Source of the DNA: a phage
Sequence record: PX655591.1
Length of the DNA stretch: 38,819 nt
Strand: one strand, 5' to 3'
In this document: positions 1-8,066 of the stretch, piece after piece
Layout of the letters: each line of letters begins with the position of its first letter
Position numbering within the stretch: position 1 is the stretch's first letter
Made by a program: the position numbers and the translations under genes
The notes under the pieces: generated by a model
Told to the model about the DNA's origin: nothing
Databases searched by the model: none
Seen by the model: the letters and a program-made list of their open reading frames with translations, nothing else

Positions 1-180
1 TAGGCCCTCTTTTAGTCCAGACCAAAGGCCCTACCCGTAGACCTTCGGTCTATACCTCTAGTCTATCATAAGGTTGGACCGGTTGTCAACACTTCAGGTC
101 AACTATAGGTAGAGGCTATTGCTGGAGGTCGGGACGATAGGTAGGGACTATTGGTCTGCCTCCGAGTCTCTATCTGTACA

Positions 181-302
181 ACCATAGGTCAAAACCATAA
201 GTCACAACCCACATCTCACAACCTACAGACTACAGACTACAGTCTAACCAACCATAAGTCACAACCTACAGTCTCAACCATAAGACACCAACACCTACAG
301 TC
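181..302 (+). repeat. Left-end array of short direct repeats (ACCATAAGTCACAACC twice at 194-209 and 251-266; CTACAGA tandem at about 227-247)
   Basis: Repeats read directly from sequence; position matches the short-repeat array near the left end of T7-like genomes. Confidence 0.6.
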
Positions 303-426
303 ATAGACCTACGGTTAATAGACACAAGGCTATAGACTTAAGGTCTAAGACATGTTAGTCAAAGACTATATCCTCTTACACCATGGGGCCGACGATAGCT
401 CAATCAATATTATTTGAAATAACCTA

Positions 427-456
427 TTGACTATAGGTACAGACTATGGCTTAATA
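427..456 (+). promoter_or_regulatory. Candidate host sigma70 early promoter (TTGACT -35 at 427-432, weak -10 near 450-456)
   Basis: Perfect -35-like hexamer with 17-18 nt spacer; position matches T7 A1-A3 early promoters upstream of gene 0.3; -10 is poor. Confidence 0.35.
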
Positions 457-567
457 GCTTCCGTCAACACGACACGGCAACAACCGGATAGTGAAGACGC
501 CGGGTCATCCCGGTTAAGTAGACAGCCTGATAAGTCATACGAAAAACAGGCAGATGACAGAAAGCAG

Positions 568-597
568 TTGACAAGATGTACCGACTTAAAGTAGTAT
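568..597 (+). promoter_or_regulatory. Candidate host sigma70 early promoter (TTGACA 568-573, 18 nt spacer, TAGTAT 592-597)
   Basis: Consensus -35 plus plausible -10, read from sequence, upstream of first gene. Confidence 0.45.
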
Positions 598-821
598 GTA
601 CCACATCGAAACGACAGTGAGTACCAACACTGAAACGGGATAGCACGGCGGCGACAGCCAACGCGAATGCTCTTTAACAATTTGGATAAACTCTTAATGT
701 GCGCCGATAGCGACTAACTACAGGGTCTTTGAGTCTACCGCGAGACGGGCTTGACTTGAGCGACTGAAGGCCCTGACTGATAGTCACTAAAATACATAAA
801 CAACTTTGAGAGGATATAACT

Positions 822-1331
822 ATGGAACGTAACGCTAAAGCATACTATGAGCTGCTGGCCGCAACCGTTGAAGCATTTAACGAGCGCATTCAGTACGACG
901 AAATAGCTGAAGGTGATGACTACCGTGATGCGCTGCATGAAGTCGTAGACGGTAATGTTCCGCACTATTACCACGAGATTTTCACGGTGATGGCTGCTGA
1001 TGGTATTGACCACGAGTTTGAGGACTCTGGGCTGATGCCTGATACCAAGGACGTAACGCGTATACTACAAGCTCGCATCTATGAGGCGCTATATAACGAT
1101 GTATCTAATAGCCGTGATGTGGTATGGTTTGAGGCTGAAGAGGAAGACGAAAGGGCTGAATATCGGGTAGTTGACACTAGAACAGGCGAGATAATTGAGG
1201 CAGCTGTATCACTTTACGAGGCTATTGCATGTGCAAAAGAACTCTATGAGGAAGGTTTTCACATGCAGGTCGAGGACATCAACGATAACGTAGTGTTTGA
1301 CCCTGCGGATGCTGAGGAGGACTGCGAGTGA
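822..1331 (+). CDS. Ocr-like DNA-mimic anti-restriction protein (gene 0.3-like) with C-terminal extension, 169 aa
   Basis: Translation has [43 protein letters not shown], closely matching T7 Ocr as recalled; acidic; RBS GAGAGGA upstream; first gene after early promoters. Confidence 0.85.
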
Positions 1332-1486
1332 TGGTAACTTATGGCCTCTGCCAGTACCACGTCACCACCGCCAGGCTTATGGTCAAGACTGGGCGGTTAA
1401 ACCACGATGAGACTATGCGTCTCCTGAAGGTGGTCTACAAGCGCCGCAAACGTATTCACGACAGCTTGCACGCTGAGGACAAGTAA
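1331..1486 (+). CDS. Small early ORF, 51 aa ([11 protein letters not shown]...), overlapping the Ocr stop (TGATG)
   Basis: Hand translation; translationally coupled; no recognised homolog. Confidence 0.35.
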   Translation: MVTYGLCQYHVTTARLMVKTGRLNHDETMRLLKVVYKRRKRIHDSLHAEDK

Positions 1487-1488
1487 AC

Positions 1489-1614
1489 ATGTACAAGATA
1501 ACTTATAGCAGTGAACAGGCGTTCTACGATGGGTGCTACGAAATGATGAAGCGCGGGGCTTGCTACGTGGCTGATCACCATAGCCTGACCATAACGCTAA
1601 CAGGCGGATACTGA
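1489..1614 (+). CDS. Small early ORF, 41 aa (MYKITYSSEQAFYDGCYEMMKRGACYV...)
   Basis: Hand translation; begins 2 nt after the preceding stop; no recognised homolog. Confidence 0.3.
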   Translation: MYKITYSSEQAFYDGCYEMMKRGACYVADHHSLTITLTGGY

Positions 1615-1684
1615 GTGATAGACGAGAGGTCATCGACTGATAGGTGGCCTCAAAGATTACCACTTGCATTAATAGGAGTTAACT

Positions 1685-1774
1685 ATGAGTGTGGGATATT
1701 GGGTCTGCCTAGCGCCAGTTATCTGGATGGTAGGTTATGGGATATACGATTGCATTAAACGGAAATCACTATGA
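1685..1774 (+). CDS. Small hydrophobic early ORF, 29 aa (MSVGYWVCLAPVIWMVGYGIYDC...)
   Basis: AGGAG RBS about 7 nt upstream; stop overlaps next start (ATGA). Confidence 0.3.
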   Translation: MSVGYWVCLAPVIWMVGYGIYDCIKRKSL

Positions 1775-1968
1775 GTCTTGCACTATTGATAGCCATAGGC
1801 TATGGACTTATCACCTACGTGCTGGTGAGAGACATCAACAAAGCGCGTAAAGTCTACAAATTCAACTATGTACGTCTGGGCCGCTGGACTGTACGTCAAC
1901 CTAACGGACGATTCATGCGCAACCTAGCGAACGTCTGGGATATAGCAACACTTGGGAGCAAACTGTAA
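1771..1968 (+). CDS. Hypothetical early protein, 65 aa, N-terminal hydrophobic helix then basic tail
   Basis: ORF track; N-terminus LALLIAIGYGLITYVLV; coupled to neighbours; sits where T7 has genes 0.4-0.6. Confidence 0.45.
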   Translation: MSLALLIAIGYGLITYVLVRDINKARKVYKFNYVRLGRWTVRQPNGRFMRNLANVWDIATLGSKL

Positions 1969-2294
1969 TGAAAAAGTCTTACGGGATTAATCTGGTACAC
2001 TCTATGGATGCAGACGCGAACATGTTAAGCCTACTGGCTACCGGGTATCGTCACGGAACGTCAAGTCACTCCGCACGTCAACAGCAGGAGCGTGACCGTG
2101 TACTACAGGCACGACTCCGGGCCGAGGGACATAAGTCCGAGCTGATGTGTCTGGCGTATGGTGGCCGACCACTTACCGACGATGGTAAACTTTTAGTCTC
2201 AGGCTGGAAGGCGATAGACCAACGGTCAGCCATCAAGCACACGACCCATGGTGACTTCAGTCATCTCCACGCTAACCCACTGATATGCAAGTGA
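1968..2294 (+). CDS. Hypothetical early protein, 108 aa
   Basis: ORF track; TAATG overlap with upstream ORF; no recognised motif. Confidence 0.5.
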   Translation: MKKSYGINLVHSMDADANMLSLLATGYRHGTSSHSARQQQERDRVLQARLRAEGHKSELMCLAYGGRPLTDDGKLLVSGWKAIDQRSAIKHTTHGDFSHLHANPLICK

Positions 2295-2299
2295 TTCTG

Positions 2300-2322
2300 A
2301 CTTAACTATCACTATAGGACTC
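2300..2322 (+). promoter_or_regulatory. Phage RNAP promoter (ACTTAACTATCACTATAGGACTC), upstream of the RNAP gene
   Basis: One of 11 near-identical 23-mers resembling T7 promoter core CACTATAGG; intergenic. Confidence 0.8.
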
Positions 2323-2391
2323 AAGGTCTAATACTCCAAGTGAAAGACCGAAGAGACTTTAAGTGAAAGACTAATAACAAGGACTTTAAGT

Positions 2392-5073
2392 ATGGGCGTC
2401 ATCTCTATTGACAAACACGACTTCTCTGATGTGTCGAACGCCATTGAGCCGTTTAACCTGCTGGCTGACCACTACGGGCAAGACCTTGCAGTCAAACAGC
2501 TTCAGCTTGAGCATGAGGCATACACTGAAGGCGAGCGACGTTTCATCAAGAACCTTGAGCGCCAGACCGAGCGCGGGGAACTAGCAGACAATCAGGTCGC
2601 CAAGCCTCTTATGCAGACTCTGGTTCCTAAGATTGCGCAAGCCGTCAAGGAGTGGCATGAAGGTCCAGACGGGAAGCTGTCAACCTCTCGTCCGAGCGTA
2701 GCGTTCACCATGTTGAGTACTGAAGAGAAGGCCGTAAAGGACCGCTCTTTGCGTATCTCCTGTGAGTCTGCTGCAGTTATCATACTGAAGGTCATCCTCT
2801 CCAAGCTGGTCAAGCCTGAAGGGATACCGATTACACCGATGGCCTCCGCGATAGGTCGCACACTTGAGGATGAAATCCGATTCGGTCGAATTCGTGACAA
2901 GGAGAAGGAGCATTTCAAGAAGGCGATAGCTGATAACCTGAACAAGAGAGTCGGGGCATCATACAAGAAGGCCTACATGCAAGCGGTTGAGACATCCATG
3001 TTGGAGCAAGGTCAACTGGAAGATGCGTGGGGGACTTGGAGTCCGACCGAGGCTGTCCACGTTGGTATCAAGATGCTTGAGATTGTCATCCAGTCAACAC
3101 AACTGGTCGAGCTTAAGCGTTACGGTGCTGGCAATGCAGCGGCTGACGTTGAGATGGTCCATCTGTCAGACTTCTGGGTCAAGAAGATGGCACAAAGAGG
3201 ATTCAGCCTTGCGGGTATCGCTCCAGTCTACCAGCCTTGCGTAGTTCCACCTAAGCCGTGGACTGGTGTCGTAGGCGGTGGGTACTGGGCCAAAGGTCGC
3301 AGACCACTACCACTGATTCGATTAGGGTCTAAGTCTGCGGTGGCGCGTTATGAAGATGTGTACATGCCTGAAGTCTATGACGCTGTGAATATCATCCAGA
3401 ATACGCCTTGGAAAGTGAACAAGAAGGTGCTGGACGTGGTGAACATGGTCGAGAAGCTGAACAACACGCCTATTGATGACATCCCGCAGATGGAACCACT
3501 GAAGCCTGAGGACTATGCGGGTGAGACCGAAGAGGAACTCAAGGCATGGAAGAAGACTGCTGCTGGTATCTACCGCCGAGAGAAGGCCCGGCAGTCACGC
3601 AGATTGTCACTGAGCTTTATCGTTAACCAAGCGAACAAGTTCTCTCAGTTCAAGGCCATCTGGTTCCCGTACAACATGGACTGGCGTGGTCGCGTCTACG
3701 CTGTGCCGATGTTCAACCCTCAGGGTAACGACATGCAAAAGGGTCTACTGACTCTGGCAGTCGGCAAGCCTATTGGTGCCGATGGCTTCAAATGGCTGAA
3801 GGTCCACGGTGCAAACTGCGCGGGTGTCGATAAAGTCACCTTCGAGGAGCGCATCAAGTGGGTGGAAGACAACCACGACAACATCATGGCTACTGCTAAA
3901 GCACCGATGGATAGCATTGAGTGGTGGGGCAAGTTAGACTCTCCGTTCTGCTTCCTTGCGTTCTGCTTCGAGTATGCTGGCGTAATGCACCACGGATTGT
4001 CTTACTCCTGCTCTCTACCGATAGCATTCGATGGGTCCTGCTCTGGGATTCAGCACTTCAGCGCTATGCTTCGTGACCACATCGGTGGACATGCAGTAAA
4101 CCTAACGCCATCCGGTAAGGTCCAAGACATCTACCGCATCGTGTCTGATCGCATTGAGGAGGAACTTAAAGTCCTGCTGGTTAACGGCACGGATAACGAG
4201 ATGGTCACTCACGAGGACAAGAAAACTGGTGAGATCACCGAACGTCTCAAGCTAGGGACACGAGAGCTGGCCCGGCAGTGGCTGACTTACGGTATGTCAC
4301 GTAAGGTCACTAAGCGTTCAGTAATGACTCTGGCCTACGGGTCGAAAGAGTACGGCTTCGCAGACCAAGTGTACGAGGACATCGTGATGCCAGCGATTGA
4401 CTCAGGGTCTGGCGCTATGTTCACCGAGCCAAGCCAAGCGTCTCGCTTCATGGCTAAGATGATTTGGGAAGCTGTGAGTGTGACCGTAGTTGCTGCTGTT
4501 GACGCGATGAAGTGGCTTCAAGGAGCTGCCAAGCTGCTGGCTGCTGAAGTGAAGGACAAGAAGACTGGAGAAATCCTGAAGCCTTGCCTCCCGGTACACT
4601 GGGTCACACCTGATGGGTTCCCGGTCTGGCAGGAATACCGCAAGAAGGATACCACCCGTCTGAACCTGATGTTCTTAGGGTCATTCAACCTTCAGCCTAC
4701 CGTCAACAGAGGCACGAAGAAAGAGCTGGACAAGCACAAGCAGGAGTCAGGCATTAGCCCGAACTTCGTCCACTCACAAGATGGTAGCCACCTCCGCAAG
4801 ACTGTAGTCCACACTCACCGCAAGTATGGAGTGATGTCATTCGCAGTGATTCATGATAGCTTCGGGACCATCCCTGCTGACGCTGAGTACCTGTTCCGTG
4901 GCGTCCGGGAGACGATGGTAGAGACCTACCGCGACAACGATGTGCTGCTGGACTTCTATGAGCAGTTTGAATGCCAGCTTCACGAGAGCCAGCGCGACAA
5001 GCTGCCAGAGCTTCCGAAGAAAGGTAAACTGAATATAGAAGACATATTGTCTTCCGACTTTGCATTCGCTTAA
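2392..5073 (+). CDS. Single-subunit DNA-directed RNA polymerase (T7 gene 1-like), 893 aa
   Basis: Extensive recalled identity to T7 RNAP (e.g. DGSCSGIQHFSAMLRD, ends SDFAFA). Confidence 0.97.
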   Translation: MGVISIDKHDFSDVSNAIEPFNLLADHYGQDLAVKQLQLEHEAYTEGERRFIKNLERQTERGELADNQVAKPLMQTLVPKIAQAVKEWHEGPDGKLSTSRPSVAFTMLSTEEKAVKDRSLRISCESAAVIILKVILSKLVKPEGIPITPMASAIGRTLEDEIRFGRIRDKEKEHFKKAIADNLNKRVGASYKKAYMQAVETSMLEQGQLEDAWGTWSPTEAVHVGIKMLEIVIQSTQLVELKRYGAGNAAADVEMVHLSDFWVKKMAQRGFSLAGIAPVYQPCVVPPKPWTGVVGGGYWAKGRRPLPLIRLGSKSAVARYEDVYMPEVYDAVNIIQNTPWKVNKKVLDVVNMVEKLNNTPIDDIPQMEPLKPEDYAGETEEELKAWKKTAAGIYRREKARQSRRLSLSFIVNQANKFSQFKAIWFPYNMDWRGRVYAVPMFNPQGNDMQKGLLTLAVGKPIGADGFKWLKVHGANCAGVDKVTFEERIKWVEDNHDNIMATAKAPMDSIEWWGKLDSPFCFLAFCFEYAGVMHHGLSYSCSLPIAFDGSCSGIQHFSAMLRDHIGGHAVNLTPSGKVQDIYRIVSDRIEEELKVLLVNGTDNEMVTHEDKKTGEITERLKLGTRELARQWLTYGMSRKVTKRSVMTLAYGSKEYGFADQVYEDIVMPAIDSGSGAMFTEPSQASRFMAKMIWEAVSVTVVAAVDAMKWLQGAAKLLAAEVKDKKTGEILKPCLPVHWVTPDGFPVWQEYRKKDTTRLNLMFLGSFNLQPTVNRGTKKELDKHKQESGISPNFVHSQDGSHLRKTVVHTHRKYGVMSFAVIHDSFGTIPADAEYLFRGVRETMVETYRDNDVLLDFYEQFECQLHESQRDKLPELPKKGKLNIEDILSSDFAFA

Positions 5074-5089
5074 CAGGAGAGAGAGAGTT

Positions 5090-5290
5090 ATGAAATTCGC
5101 ACACAAGCAGACTGGCGTTAAGGGTGGGACTCAAATCGTGACCGTAACAGAACACAACGGCAAGGGTCTGGTGAAGACCACTGTCATACCTACCGAGATG
5201 TCAAAGCAGCTTAAAGTCCCATTCAAGTGGTTGGTTAAGCAGGTGGAGCAGGCACACGAACAGGCTCTTAAAGAGGCGGCAACAAAATGA
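5090..5290 (+). CDS. Hypothetical protein, 66 aa (MKFAHKQTGVKGG...)
   Basis: Strong RBS GGAGAGAGAGAG upstream of ATG 5090; in-frame with track ORF 5060-5290; no T7 counterpart recalled at this position. Confidence 0.5.
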   Translation: MKFAHKQTGVKGGTQIVTVTEHNGKGLVKTTVIPTEMSKQLKVPFKWLVKQVEQAHEQALKEAATK

Positions 5291-5365
5291 CAGACCTACA
5301 GTTACTGGCCTTGTGGCTAGGAGCACTCGCAGTATTCACTTTAATCCAACGCAGAAGAGGTTAAC
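5288..5365 (+). CDS. Small hydrophobic peptide ORF, 25 aa (MTDLQLLALWLGALAVFTLIQRRRG)
   Basis: Hand translation; ATGA overlap with upstream ORF; very short. Confidence 0.25.
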
Positions 5366-5388
5366 CCTAAACTATCACTATAGGATTA
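5366..5388 (+). promoter_or_regulatory. Phage RNAP promoter (CCTAAACTATCACTATAGGATTA)
   Basis: Conserved 23-mer; position matches T7 phi1.1 promoters near the primary replication origin. Confidence 0.85.
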
Positions 5389-5423
5389 GACTCAAGGTCA
5401 TGACTCAAAGTCGTGGCCTTCAT
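5386..5423 (+). promoter_or_regulatory. RNase III-type processing hairpin (TAGACTCAAGGTCAT...GTGGCCTTCAT)
   Basis: Stem AAGGUCA/UGGCCUU with one G-U pair; same flanks recur at 12381 and 35433 with different loops. Confidence 0.6.
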
Positions 5424-5461
5424 GATTAACCCTAAATAAACACTACTGGAGATTTAACCAT

Positions 5462-5641
5462 ATGTATCAGAACACTATCAACTTCGAGCGCATCCGTGGA
5501 CGTCAGCAGACTGAAGGTTACATTCCGAAGGGCCGCAAGCTGAACAAGACCAAGCGTGGTGGTGGTATCAAAGGCGCTTTCCGTAATGCTGAAGGTAAAG
5601 ACTCTATTGTTAACCAAGAGAAATATTTCGTAGGAGTATAA
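5462..5641 (+). CDS. Gene 1.1-like small basic protein, 59 aa
   Basis: Contains KGRKLNKTKR as in T7 gp1.1 (recalled); position after phi1.1. Confidence 0.7.
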   Translation: MYQNTINFERIRGRQQTEGYIPKGRKLNKTKRGGGIKGAFRNAEGKDSIVNQEKYFVGV

Positions 5642-5645
5642 CCAA

Positions 5646-5933
5646 ATGGGCATGTTCTCAAGAGCACATAGTGGCAACCTGAACACTCTGCGTCAGGCCA
5701 TCAACAACTGGCAGACCGAGACGGAATACAATGCAGAGATCAGCACTTGGTTTGACCCGGTGATGAACAGGACTTGTATCAAAGCGGTAATAGTCCACGC
5801 TCAAACAAGAGAGGTACTCATCGAGAAGGACTTCACGGAGTACCCAAATATCCACGCCGCAGATGTGGAGGCCATTGCGGTAGCCACTTGGTTCAATAAA
5901 CAGTTCAACGACTACACTGGTCGATTCCTTTAA
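5646..5933 (+). CDS. Gene 1.2-like protein (dGTPase inhibitor position), 95 aa
   Basis: Position and size; weak recalled similarity to T7 gp1.2 (MG...SGNL). Confidence 0.55.
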   Translation: MGMFSRAHSGNLNTLRQAINNWQTETEYNAEISTWFDPVMNRTCIKAVIVHAQTREVLIEKDFTEYPNIHAADVEAIAVATWFNKQFNDYTGRFL

Positions 5934-5947
5934 TTCTGGAGACATTA

Positions 5948-6985
5948 ATGATGACAACTATCAAAACAAAACCGCACCGCGCTGTAGATTACTCCGAGCC
6001 TGGTATTAAGAAGGCACTGGAAGCAGCTGGGTCTCTGGAAGCTGAAGTGAAGTATGACGGTGTGCGTCTAAACCTACTGGTCCTGCGTGAAGGTGAGACC
6101 TACTGGCTGAGCCGTGAGTCTAAACCTCTTCCAGCCTTGGAGTGGATGAACTCTGAGTTAGGGAATGCGTGGACCCAAGCTGAGTGGCGATGGTTCCTGC
6201 GTCAAGCTGGCTACGAAGGAGTGGGCTTAATGATTGATGGCGAGGTCATGGTCAAAGGCGTGGACTTCAATACCTCCTCAGGTCTCATCCGAACGAAGTG
6301 GGTAAAGCAAAAGAACTTTGAGTTTTCAACTGGTGAGCACTGGGGTAAGAGCTGGAAGAAAGAGAATCTACCGTTCTGTCTTGACAGGAAGCACATCAAG
6401 GTAGTCGTCTACGGTATCGTGGACCTTAACGTCATCCTCGACCCGAAGGCCGAAGGTCCTATCCATAGCGTCACACGCCTGAAGGCCGAAGCTATCGTAC
6501 CCCTCCTCCAGAAATACTTCCCGGAAATTGACTGGGTTCTGTCTGAGAGTCATACAGTGTTCAACCTTGAGTCTCTTCGTGATTTGTACGAGGAGAAGCG
6601 AGCAGATGGACATGAAGGTCTGGTAGTCAAGGATCCACTGGGCAAATACAAGCGTGGTAAGAAGTCTGGTATGTGGAAGATGAAGCCAAGTGAAGAGGCA
6701 GATGGTCACGTTGTTCGCCCGGTGTGGGGAACAGAAGGTCTAGCCAACGAAGGTATGGTCATCGGCTTTGACGTTATGCTCGAGAACGGGATGGAGGTCT
6801 CCGCAACTAACATTAGTCGTGCCCTTATGTCCGAGTTTACGGAGAACGTTAAGTCAGACCCTGACTACTACAAAGGGTGGGCTTGCCAGATTACCTACAT
6901 GGAGGAGACACCAGATGGCTCATTGCGACACCCCTCGTTCGACCAGTGGCGTGGAACTGAGGATAATCCTACAGTCAAGATTTAA
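5948..6985 (+). CDS. ATP-dependent DNA ligase (gene 1.3-like), 345 aa
   Basis: KxDG adenylation motif (EVKYDGVR) and long recalled identity to T7 ligase (WACQITYMEETPDGSLRHPSF). Confidence 0.95.
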   Translation: MMTTIKTKPHRAVDYSEPGIKKALEAAGSLEAEVKYDGVRLNLLVLREGETYWLSRESKPLPALEWMNSELGNAWTQAEWRWFLRQAGYEGVGLMIDGEVMVKGVDFNTSSGLIRTKWVKQKNFEFSTGEHWGKSWKKENLPFCLDRKHIKVVVYGIVDLNVILDPKAEGPIHSVTRLKAEAIVPLLQKYFPEIDWVLSESHTVFNLESLRDLYEEKRADGHEGLVVKDPLGKYKRGKKSGMWKMKPSEEADGHVVRPVWGTEGLANEGMVIGFDVMLENGMEVSATNISRALMSEFTENVKSDPDYYKGWACQITYMEETPDGSLRHPSFDQWRGTEDNPTVKI

Positions 6986-7829: not shown

Positions 7830-7911
7830 GTGGTGCCGGGAGATGTATGAGAAGACTCTCAACCCGGACTACATTACGTTATACAACCAATGGAAGGAGC
7901 GCGGTTTATGA
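7816..7911 (+). CDS. Gene 1.8-like small ORF, 31 aa
   Basis: Hand translation; overlaps gene 1.7 end and gene 2 start; start codon uncertain. Confidence 0.3.
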
Positions 7912-8066
7912 CTGAGGTTGAGAAGAAATACATCGTGGAGCTTGAGGGTCGCGTTCAGTCCTTCGAGGTTCCGGTGTACGCAAAGTCTCTTGAAGAGGCT
8001 ACCCTGAAGTCCCAAGAGTATGAGGACGCTGGGTTTGTGGTAGGACGGATTCGTCCTGAGACCTAA
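7908..8066 (+). CDS. Host RNA polymerase inhibitor (gene 2-like), 52 aa
   Basis: [15 protein letters not shown]...GFVVGRIRP matches recalled T7 Gp2 (HSFEVPIYAETLDEA...GFEVTRVRP). Confidence 0.8.

Follow-up and report, generated by a model that had tools for sequence, protein, structure and literature searches.

The five small open reading frames of 51, 41, 29, 65 and 108 aa located between the ocr gene and the RNA polymerase gene of the phage are real genes, each held in its own frame by purifying selection. They very probably form the class I (early) accessory block of a K1F-like phage, which is transcribed by the host polymerase, processed by RNase III and carried as dispensable, mosaic cargo. 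The window, that is, the whole stretch of 38,819 nucleotides that was analysed, belongs to Kayfunavirus, i.e., to the K1F-like relatives of T7. It was matched by 245 phage records, the best of which have the same gene order and a DNA identity of 91–92%. Comparison across related phages, suggested as a check in the first-pass annotation, showed the five genes recurring in order: the order of the early block in EPr2, CHX131 and PDP351P3 is that of the window (91–92% identity), and the same five small genes are present in annotated relatives. The five-gene block is the standard early block of Kayfunavirus, found in more than 200 sequenced phages; it is already known and ordinary, and its gene content is mosaic across relatives. 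As a genome feature it adds little, the genus being well sampled and loss of the kinase being common. The block and its boundaries are represented by the following features:

822..1331, + strand: homologue of ocr (gene 0.3) in its long form of 169 aa; bounds the block on the left (Pfam PF08684, E=1.9e-31; phrog_2568)
1331..1486, + strand: 51-aa gene, diverged member of the T7 gp0.4 family (slot, length, profile match, pN/pS 0.31)
1489..1614, + strand: 41-aa gene, soluble product (intact in 17/17 distinct homologues; pN/pS 0.18; phrog_33188, E=3e-5)
1613..1665, + strand: homologue of R0.5, the T7/T3 RNase III processing site, a hairpin with an internal loop (homology, conservation)
1685..1774, + strand: gene of a hydrophobic peptide of 29 aa; it is the first gene after R0.5 and takes the gene-0.5 slot (intact in 18/19 homologues; pN/pS 0.28)
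1771..1968, + strand: 65-aa predicted single-pass membrane protein, assigned to the T3 gene 0.6 family (matches to T3 gp0.6 and phrog_2385; pN/pS 0.36)
1968..2294, + strand: gene of a 108-aa basic helical protein, ‘gp0.38’ in EcoDS1/CR8 (phrog_7066, E=1.6e-44)
2302..2319, + strand: promoter for the phage RNA polymerase, matching the consensus exactly; closes the block on the right, shortly before gene 1
2392..5073, + strand: gene 1, T7-type RNA polymerase, 893-aa ORF (annotated as RNA polymerase in all relatives)

The Ocr homologue is 50% identical to T7 Ocr over 113 aa, and the distance from ocr to gene 1 is about 1.06 kb, compared with 1.9 kb in T7. Ten phage promoter matches were found on the + strand of the window (0.05 expected); the promoter at 2302..2319 has the same position in K1F and most relatives. 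Within the block region a phage promoter occurs solely after the 108-aa gene, which fits the assignment of the five genes to the host-polymerase (class I) genes. A host-promoter-like site is located upstream of ocr, at 568–597. The Rfam scan of positions 1–6000 gave zero matches at E<=1, and scans of all ORFs against Pfam (a copy predating PF26807) and NCBIfam returned Ocr as the sole match.

Coding status was assessed from the ratio of nonsynonymous to synonymous variation. In-frame pN/pS was 0.31 for the 51-aa ORF, 0.18 for the 41-aa ORF, 0.28 for the 29-aa ORF, 0.36 for the 65-aa ORF and 0.37 for the 108-aa ORF, the value for Ocr being 0.30; in the other two frames of the five ORFs it was about 0.85–1.7. 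Each ORF is thus under purifying selection in its own frame, and even the 29-aa ORF is a gene. Shine–Dalgarno-like sequences are present 6–10 nt upstream of all five ORFs, the one before the 65-aa ORF being weak. A 90-aa ORF on the minus strand (1397–1669) was rejected because of stop codons in relatives.

The 51-aa product belongs, as judged from sequence and profile comparisons, to the family of T7 gp0.4, the FtsZ inhibitor, as a diverged member. It shares 37% identity with T7 gp0.4 over 41 aa; reciprocal PHROG cross-matches were found for T7 gp0.4 with phrog_5058 (E=9e-5) and for the 51-aa product with phrog_7202 (E=0.015); hhalign of the two families gave a probability of 90% and E=1.6e-6 over 40 columns; and a homologue 78% identical to the 51-aa product has a precomputed match to Pfam PF26807 (Phage_T7_GP04). 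Similar to the 51-aa gp0.4 of T7, the gene directly follows ocr with a stop/start overlap (TGATG), and R0.5 is located downstream of the gp0.4-like slot at 1331–1486, with the 41-aa gene, absent in K1F, between them. The positions YGL, MV, G, N, M, LK, Y, K and I are common to both families. An alternative GTG start at 1328 has better Shine–Dalgarno spacing and is the sole start available in two relatives. The remark in the first-pass annotation that none of these ORFs resembles a T7 early protein does not hold, given the gp0.4-family assignment of the 51-aa product and the T3 gene 0.6 family assignment of the 65-aa product.

The 51-aa peptide most likely binds FtsZ and would thereby block host division. 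This bears on K1F, which is said in a 2022 paper to be without gene 0.4, FtsZ being nevertheless blocked; K1F infection leads to filaments with multiple Z-rings (PMC9372555). K1F gp02, of 49 aa, is 90% identical to the 51-aa product, and this gp0.4 homologue is, on sequence grounds, the obvious candidate for the blocking of FtsZ. K1F-type phages do carry a gp0.4-family gene, which contradicts the published claim of a missing gene 0.4 and a novel FtsZ inhibitor; FtsZ inhibition by K1F becomes a one-gene hypothesis that is directly testable. Of the host-takeover or anti-defence functions expected for the early genes in the first-pass annotation, a role in host takeover has good support for one gene, this FtsZ inhibitor homologue.

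It is possible, although rather unlikely, that the relationship of the 51-aa product to gp0.4 goes no further than structure and that its target is another one, the filamentation caused by K1F-type phages being due to another gene. Identity to gp0.4 is only about 35%, and the 51-aa product is basic (pI 10.0), while T7 gp0.4 is acidic by reading of its sequence. Escape variants of T7 gp0.4 carry substitutions at W28 and L35, two residues of the FtsZ-protected helices (PMC13423816). In the alignment, the 51-aa family has an invariant L32 opposite L35 but an invariant H25 opposite W28, and the target could therefore differ. All five CapRel-contact residues of T7 gp0.4 (A12, T14, L16, S19, R23; PMC13423816) also differ in the 51-aa product. 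Nevertheless, slot, length and the two-helix pattern are conserved, as are Leu35, Met32, Tyr39 and the YGL motif; a Pfam family match is recorded for a close homologue; and K1F shows a gp0.4-like phenotype with no other candidate similar to known FtsZ inhibitors (PMC9372555). FtsZ binding by a diverged gp0.4 homologue is the likelier reading.

Its matches place the 65-aa product in the T3 gene 0.6 family: it is 38% identical to T3 gp0.6 over 63 aa (BLASTP, E=1.5e-9), and both proteins match phrog_2385 end to end (E=8e-32 and 9e-30, respectively). The homologue in K1F is annotated as ‘0.6’. An N-terminal transmembrane-like helix had been noted earlier, and the hydrophobic helix LALLIAIGYGLITYVLV was indeed found. 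The 65-aa product has the same length as T3 gp0.6 (NP_523298.1, 65 aa), an N-terminal transmembrane helix and a location downstream of R0.5, as well as the conserved pattern RD..K...TVR..NGRF...IAT. However, in T3 gene 0.6 comes straight after R0.5, ahead of 0.65 and 0.7, whereas in the window the 65-aa gene is the second after R0.5, follows the 29-aa gene and precedes the 108-aa gene. The 65-aa protein is predicted to cross the membrane once and to have a small basic domain in the cytoplasm.

The 108-aa protein consists of a variable N-terminus, a three-helix core and an invariant C-terminal tail, T92-x2-GDF-x-HL, with pN/pS of 0.16–0.30 in all three parts. Its AF2 model has a pLDDT of 70.7, with values of about 90 for residues 41–80. 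The gene was found in 213 phage records. A profile search of 1.84 billion representatives gave only 14 matches, counted as representatives at 50% identity; the ten best (E<=1e-10) are family members of 57–122 aa, and among the four weakest are two long proteins, which look like chance. No fold or sequence match was found for the protein outside its family, and the family profile matched nothing below E=1 among PDB sequences. A detached C-terminal (shut-off) domain of gp0.7 and a relative of T3 gp0.65 were both considered and rejected as identities for the 108-aa protein, since the profile search against T7/T3 early proteins gave <=2.6 bits. The 65-aa gene stands directly before the 108-aa gene, or is separated from it by an HNH gene, in nearly all relatives examined. 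The homologue of the 108-aa gene stands immediately before gene 1 in the distant relatives L045, L046 and L047, and the contig of the fourth, L048, ends before gene 1.

The 108-aa protein probably docks onto a partner via its invariant, unstructured C-terminal tail. A more specific proposal, plausible but doubtful, is that it acts, possibly together with the membrane-anchored 65-aa protein, as a host-takeover or anti-defence factor, with the tail docking on a conserved enterobacterial target; in that case, the three-helix core would present the invariant, disordered peptide T-x2-GDF-x-HL. If this is true, the fixed slot just before gene 1, kept in phages as divergent as 37–50% identity, would point to a requirement for very early co-expression with the polymerase.

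The gene 0.7 kinase, already reported as missing in the first-pass annotation, is absent: tblastn of three gp0.7-type kinases (T7 gp0.7, T3 gp0.7 and the 244-aa kinase of Kayfunavirus) against the whole 38.8-kb window gave no matches at E<=1. The gp0.7 kinase families are phrog_2828 and phrog_15752. Absence of 0.7 is usual in this group, its loss being a known, common and mosaic trait (PMC4038870), and the 244-aa kinase was found in only about 47 phage records, compared with 213 for the 108-aa gene. The JSS1_004 kinase was rejected as an example of the 244-aa form, as it has both kinase and shut-off domains.

Replacement of 0.7 by the block, especially by the pair of 65-aa and 108-aa genes acting in host shut-off or anti-defence by another mechanism in kinase-less phages, is improbable. 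The pair immediately precedes gene 1 in the three distant relatives with contigs extending that far, most phages carrying it are without the kinase, and the 108-aa protein, with a pI of 9.5, shares its basic character with the C-terminal domain of the T7 kinase, which binds nucleic acids (10.1101/2024.12.20.629319). However, the pair coexists with the 244-aa kinase, encoded between the 41-aa and 65-aa genes, in the relatives L013, L014 and L019–L023, and is therefore not an alternative to it; T3 likewise has a 0.6 homologue and full-length 0.7 together. With the 108-aa family profile, T7 gp0.7 reached a score of only 2.3 bits and T3 gp0.7 one of −0.3 bits, and searches for a resemblance in structure or sequence to characterised anti-defence proteins found none.

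The 41-aa gene, which K1F does not have, is an optional insertion separating the 0.4 homologue from R0.5. Its family comprises only 18 clusters among 5.8 billion proteins; relatives on long contigs are all on phage-sized ones of about 38–41 kb, the remaining relatives being on short fragments. The 29-aa peptide has a GRAVY of +0.78 and a basic C-terminus; the hydrophobic, membrane-type character of this product had been missed earlier. Occupying the gp0.5 slot, it is probably an inner-membrane peptide. In a nine-protein database, the best BLASTP E-value of the 29-aa product against T7 gp0.5 was 34, and neither the 29-aa nor the 65-aa product matched T7 gp0.6A; their PHROG families differ from those of T7 gp0.5 and gp0.6A. 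Slot and hydrophobic character are the sole features common to the 29-aa product and gp0.5. The 41-, 29- and 108-aa products are narrow, phage-restricted families. All five genes had been put forward as candidates for new functions; this still suits only these three products and what the T3 gene 0.6 family does biochemically.

Doubts that the smallest ORFs are real, expressed earlier, were dispelled by coding constraint and by intactness in homologues. That the 29- and 41-aa ORFs are chance frames in a non-coding leader is highly improbable: both are very short, and the 29-aa ORF has a weak PHROG match (E=0.029) and is left unannotated in several deposited relatives, but 18 of 19 and 17 of 17 distinct homologues, respectively, are intact, and pN/pS rises to 1.2–1.4 out of frame. 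The variable columns are mostly third positions (28/50 for the 29-aa ORF and 31/50 for the 41-aa ORF), and the ATG of the 29-aa ORF is preceded, at a distance of 6 nt, by a strong AGGAG site.

The five ORFs had been described as one continuous chain of about 1 kb, coupled throughout. Their sizes and coordinates stand, while unbroken coupling does not. The junctions are TGATG for ocr/51, a 2-nt gap for 51/41, ATGA for 29/65 and TAATG for 65/108, but the 41-aa and 29-aa ORFs are 70 nt apart (1615–1684), with an RNase III-type hairpin between them. The R0.5 homologue in this gap splits the block into ocr-51-41 and 29-65-108. Its flanks are near-identical to T7 1427–1480 and to the annotated R0.5 stem-loop of T3 (1359–1408), with GAGTGATAGAC...AGGTC...GTGGCCT...GATTA.CACTT common to the window and T7. 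In 15 sequences, the 18 pairs of the hairpin are conserved, with 98.1% of cells paired, compared with 26–44% in slid controls, and the site is kept in relatives whichever gene comes next. Two pairs show compensatory changes on both sides; most pairs are invariant, and the covariation evidence is therefore modest. The fold of −20.5 kcal/mol has a z-score of only −1.76 against shuffles, so that support for R0.5 comes from homology and conservation rather than stability. Cleavage by RNase III at this site would be expected by analogy with T7 and T3.

A GTG-initiated 47-aa ORF (1615..1758, + strand; phrog_36394) overlies R0.5 and the 29-aa gene, and it is scarcely credible as a real gene following the 41-aa ORF with the hairpin as part of its coding sequence: it has a strong PHROG match (E=1.7e-34) and adjoins the 41-aa stop codon, which would make the chain unbroken again, but its own-frame pN/pS is 0.85, the constrained frame being that of the 29-aa ORF, 7 of 11 relatives have stops in it or have lost its start, and the DNA of its first 25 codons stays conserved even in relatives with another gene downstream and matches the R0.5 sites of T7 and T3, where it does not code for protein. 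As a protein family phrog_36394 is likely spurious, since it appears to consist of ORFs called across an RNase III site.

By analogy with T7 and T3, the block would be read rightward by host RNA polymerase, with promoters upstream of ocr giving a single polycistronic transcript. Cutting by RNase III at the R0.5 homologue would release two messages, ocr-51-41 and 29-65-108, the second of which would probably run on into gene 1, and the genes within each message would be translationally coupled via overlapping or adjacent stop and start codons. As cargo the block is mosaic and dispensable, with relatives exchanging genes at the same junctions, including the 244-aa gp0.7-type kinase, and shut-off of host transcription would be left to the gp2 homologue encoded at 7890–8066 (phrog_1307, E=6.7e-24). 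Being small early genes of therapeutic-candidate phages, conserved and under selection, the 41-, 29-, 65- and 108-aa genes are reasonable, not exceptional, targets for toxicity and anti-defence screens.

The early regions of EPr2, CHX131 and Peacock contain ocr, the 51- and 41-aa genes, the R0.5 hairpin, the 29-, 65- and 108-aa genes, the phage promoter and gene 1 and, as in the window, no 0.7 kinase; identity to the window over 1.6 kb is 91–92% for EPr2 and CHX131 and 90% for Peacock, which differs in its short Ocr of 110 aa. K1F differs in the absence of the 41-aa gene, in a 55-aa membrane protein in place of the 29-aa product and in an in-frame stop in its 108-aa homologue. Compared with the early order of T7 (0.3, 0.4, R0.5, 0.5, 0.6A/B, 0.7, R1, gene 1), the window likewise has ocr followed by an overlapping 51-aa gene of the gp0.4 family, then R0.5 and a small hydrophobic peptide gene overlapping the next gene by ATGA, with all early genes on one strand upstream of gene 1. 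Unlike T7, the window is without the 0.7 kinase and without detectable similarity to gp0.5 and gp0.6A, and it contains the additional 41-aa and 108-aa genes. In T7, the E. coli C promoter is the sole one annotated between 0.7 and gene 1, whereas in the window a phage promoter is located directly upstream of gene 1.

The block at 1331–2294, lying between ocr and the T7-type RNA polymerase gene (gene 1, 2392..5073, plus strand), is an ordinary early region of a K1F-like phage, with little that is new. It contains one gene of the gp0.4 family, one gene of the T3 0.6 family, three further genes that are small and conserved, and a predicted R0.5 processing site. A query with the surrounding 1.6 kb matches 245 deposited phage genomes, mostly of phages from Escherichia, Salmonella, Klebsiella, Citrobacter and Enterobacter, belonging to the genus Kayfunavirus (K1F-like, T7 subfamily); three records show 91–92% identity at 100% coverage of the 1.6-kb query. 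The first-pass annotation, which described an unbroken chain of five short ORFs without T7 matches, was largely right, except that the block is neither unbroken nor unmatched. Comparison across related phages showed the same layout of ocr, small hypothetical genes and T7-type RNA polymerase gene in the annotated relatives EPr2, CHX131, Peacock and Ro45lw.

ORFs of the block, with pN/pS in the ORF frame (Nei–Gojobori; all distinct homologues from 27 related loci, three forward frames each)
1331–1486, plus strand, 51-aa ORF, pN/pS 0.31
1489–1614, plus strand, 41-aa ORF, pN/pS 0.18
1685–1774, plus strand, 29-aa ORF, pN/pS 0.28
1771–1968, plus strand, 65-aa ORF, pN/pS 0.36
1968–2294, plus strand, 108-aa ORF, pN/pS 0.37
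Ocr, comparison gene, pN/pS 0.30

All five ORFs were found at the positions first reported; the other two forward frames of these genes gave pN/pS of about 0.85–1.7. The suspicion that the smallest ORFs may not be real is not borne out for the 29-aa ORF, which, besides its low pN/pS, is intact in 18 of 19 distinct homologues, the lone exception being a 29/65 fusion; the 41-aa ORF is intact in 17/17. A purine-rich Shine–Dalgarno-like element is located 6–10 nt 5' of each ORF, strongest before the 29-aa ORF and weakest before the 65-aa ORF, an ORF that itself overlaps the preceding one. An alternative GTG start of the 51-aa gene at 1328, three bases upstream, has better Shine–Dalgarno spacing and is the sole possible start in two relatives, in which the ATG is ATA. 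The junctions TGATG, ATGA and TAATG were described correctly, and the 51-aa and 41-aa ORFs are separated by 2 nt, but the chain is broken once, since 70 nt separate the 41-aa and 29-aa ORFs. A 90-aa minus-strand ORF (1397–1669) was rejected as a gene, stops being present in relatives.

The 51-aa gene has the same length and position as T7 gene 0.4, overlapping the ocr stop. Its product shares 37% identity with T7 gp0.4 over 41 residues; T7 gp0.4 matches the PHROG of the 51-aa product with E=9e-5 (reverse match E=0.015), and profile–profile comparison of the two families gave 90% probability and E=1.6e-6 over 40 columns. A homologue from a related contig, 78% identical to the 51-aa product, has a precomputed match to Pfam PF26807 (Phage_T7_GP04); Pfam scans for the product itself were empty because the version used lacks this model. 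The 51-aa product is thus a gp0.4 relative, contrary to the initial view that no product matches a T7 early protein. Two differences call for caution: Trp28 of T7 gp0.4 is replaced by an invariant His, and all five CapRel-contacting residues of T7 gp0.4 (PMC13423816) differ in the 51-aa family. T7 gp0.4 is an FtsZ inhibitor (Kiro et al. 2013, as cited in PMC9372555; PMC13423816). K1F infection produces filaments carrying multiple Z-rings, K1F was stated to lack "the 0.4 genes", and its inhibitor was said to be unknown (PMC9372555). Since K1F gp02 and the 51-aa product share 90% identity, this gene is, judged by sequence, the obvious candidate for the FtsZ inhibitor of K1F. The most useful result is that K1F-type phages can be assigned a gp0.4 homologue.

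Folding predicted a two-part hairpin at 1613–1665, plainly homologous to T7 R0.5 (T7 1427–1480) and the annotated T3 R0.5 stem-loop. When 13 Kayfunavirus versions are aligned with T7 and T3, the 18 proposed pairs are standard in 98.1% of cells, against 26–44% with registers slid by 1–3 columns; in two pairs, both partners differ between the K1F group and T7/T3. The element is kept after the gp0.4-type gene (or the 41-aa gene) regardless of the downstream gene. The 41-aa/29-aa gap is a predicted RNase III site homologue, at which, by analogy with T7 and T3, RNase III would cut the early transcript into an ocr-51-41 RNA and a 29-65-108 RNA. A GTG-initiated 47-aa ORF (1615–1758) overlying this element and the 29-aa gene matches phrog_36394 (E=1.7e-34); it is not a gene, since its pN/pS is 0.85 and it is broken in 7 of 11 relatives. 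The phrog_36394 "family" appears to be built from ORFs called over the R0.5 RNase III site and the beginning of the gene after it and, the frame being without selection, is probably an annotation artefact.

The 65-aa product is also matched: T3 gp0.6, likewise 65 aa long, is 38% identical to it over 63 residues (E=1.5e-9), both match phrog_2385 end to end, and the K1F copy is annotated "0.6". Similarity therefore places the product in the family of T3 gene 0.6; it does not resemble T7 gp0.6A in sequence. The hydrophobic N-terminal helix reported earlier is present, followed by a strongly conserved, very basic tail (pI 11.0). In a large protein collection the family forms 119 clusters, and its members on long contigs are almost always on phage-sized ones of roughly 38–41 kb.

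The 29-aa gene encodes a hydrophobic peptide whose C-terminus is basic. It occupies the slot of T7 gp0.5, being the first gene after R0.5 and overlapping the following one by ATGA, without sequence similarity between the products; in other Kayfunaviruses this slot holds a 53–55-aa membrane protein. The 41-aa gene is not always present; where it occurs, it is inserted between the 0.4 homologue and R0.5. Its family has only 18 clusters in the protein collection, all on phage contigs.

The 108-aa gene, named gp0.38 in EcoDS1 and CR8, belongs to a family of which 1.84 billion proteins yielded only 14 representatives at 50% identity. Neither sequence nor fold searches matched anything outside this family, and T7/T3 gp0.7 and T3 gp0.65 gave no match either. 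In three distant relatives with long enough contigs, the homologue (37–50% identity) still comes after a 64–66-aa gene, with the polymerase gene immediately downstream. The variable N-terminus, core and tail are all constrained (pN/pS 0.30, 0.16 and 0.17). In the AlphaFold model from a diversified alignment (pLDDT 70.7), the three-helix core is predicted with confidence and the C-terminal tail with low confidence. The tail holds most invariant residues (T92, G95, D96, F97, H99, L100) and, as a tentative guess, may dock onto a host protein. In the K1F RefSeq record (L006, NC_007456; 2209–2468) the homologue is unannotated, with an in-frame TAG at codon 14 and scrambled nearby residues, and is either a pseudogene or a reference sequencing error.

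An exact copy of the phage-promoter consensus (TTAACTATCACTATAGGA; 10 copies in the window against 0.05 expected) is located at 2302–2319, eight bases past the 108-aa stop codon and 73 nt upstream of gene 1, and is conserved in K1F and most relatives. No copy was found upstream of the five genes, and a sigma-70-like site precedes ocr; this arrangement fits class I genes read by the host polymerase. If active, the promoter before gene 1 would allow the polymerase to raise its own production; in T7, only the E. coli C promoter is annotated between 0.7 and gene 1. Within 2302–2391, the promoter is followed by a short hairpin that contains the decamer ACTCAAGGTC, typical of T7/T3 RNase III sites, and is possibly an R1-type site. 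The left-end non-coding region (180–310) contains short direct repeats (CTACAGAC / ACCATAAGTCACAACC motifs), usual near T7-group genome ends.

Gene swaps at shared junctions, ocr included, mark the region as mosaic accessory cargo; the same junctions in relatives also take a 115-aa HTH-like gene and an HNH endonuclease. Among the related loci (L-numbers), a 140–144-aa HNH endonuclease gene lies exactly between the 65-aa and 108-aa genes in L011, L019, L020 and L023 (about 2064–2498); the 108-aa gene is full-length in L011 and cut to an 83-aa form starting near residue 26 in the other three. In L017 its N-terminus is swapped for a different 48-aa segment, and L008 has a partial tandem duplication around the gp0.4-type gene. 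The window encodes a 169-aa long form of Ocr (822–1331), whose C-terminus extends about 55 aa past the DNA-mimic domain; in T7 and several relatives the protein is 110–117 aa long, and the genus carries both forms. Ocr is replaced in L008 and L011 (about 920–1590) and in L013 and L019–L023 (about 40–780), in some by a 174-aa protein (phrog_11084) with a glycine-rich GKGAFTK motif and in others by a 150-aa protein that, by eye, we take to resemble T3 SAM hydrolase. The distant relative L045 has in this slot a 154-aa gene matching Pfam S-AdoMet_lyase.

Gene 0.7 is absent, as first noted: no kinase-like sequence was found anywhere in the window. A 58-aa gp2-type host RNA polymerase inhibitor, homologous to T7 gp2, is encoded at 7890–8066 (phrog_1307, E=6.7e-24) and is likely the means of host transcription shut-off, for which gp0.7 would thus be dispensable. 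In seven related loci (L013, L014, L019–L023; e.g., L013:1505–2239), the stretch between the 41-aa and 65-aa genes encodes a gp0.7-type kinase domain of 244 aa (phrog_15752, E=4.5e-114). The kinase-less state is the commoner one, since the 244-aa kinase occurs at >=80% identity in about 47 phage records and the 108-aa gene in 213. Exactly this difference, presence or absence of the kinase, was already reported for the pair CR8/CR44b (PMC4038870). The 244-aa form lacks the C-terminal shut-off or nucleic-acid-binding domain found in the kinases of T7 (359 aa) and T3 (369 aa).
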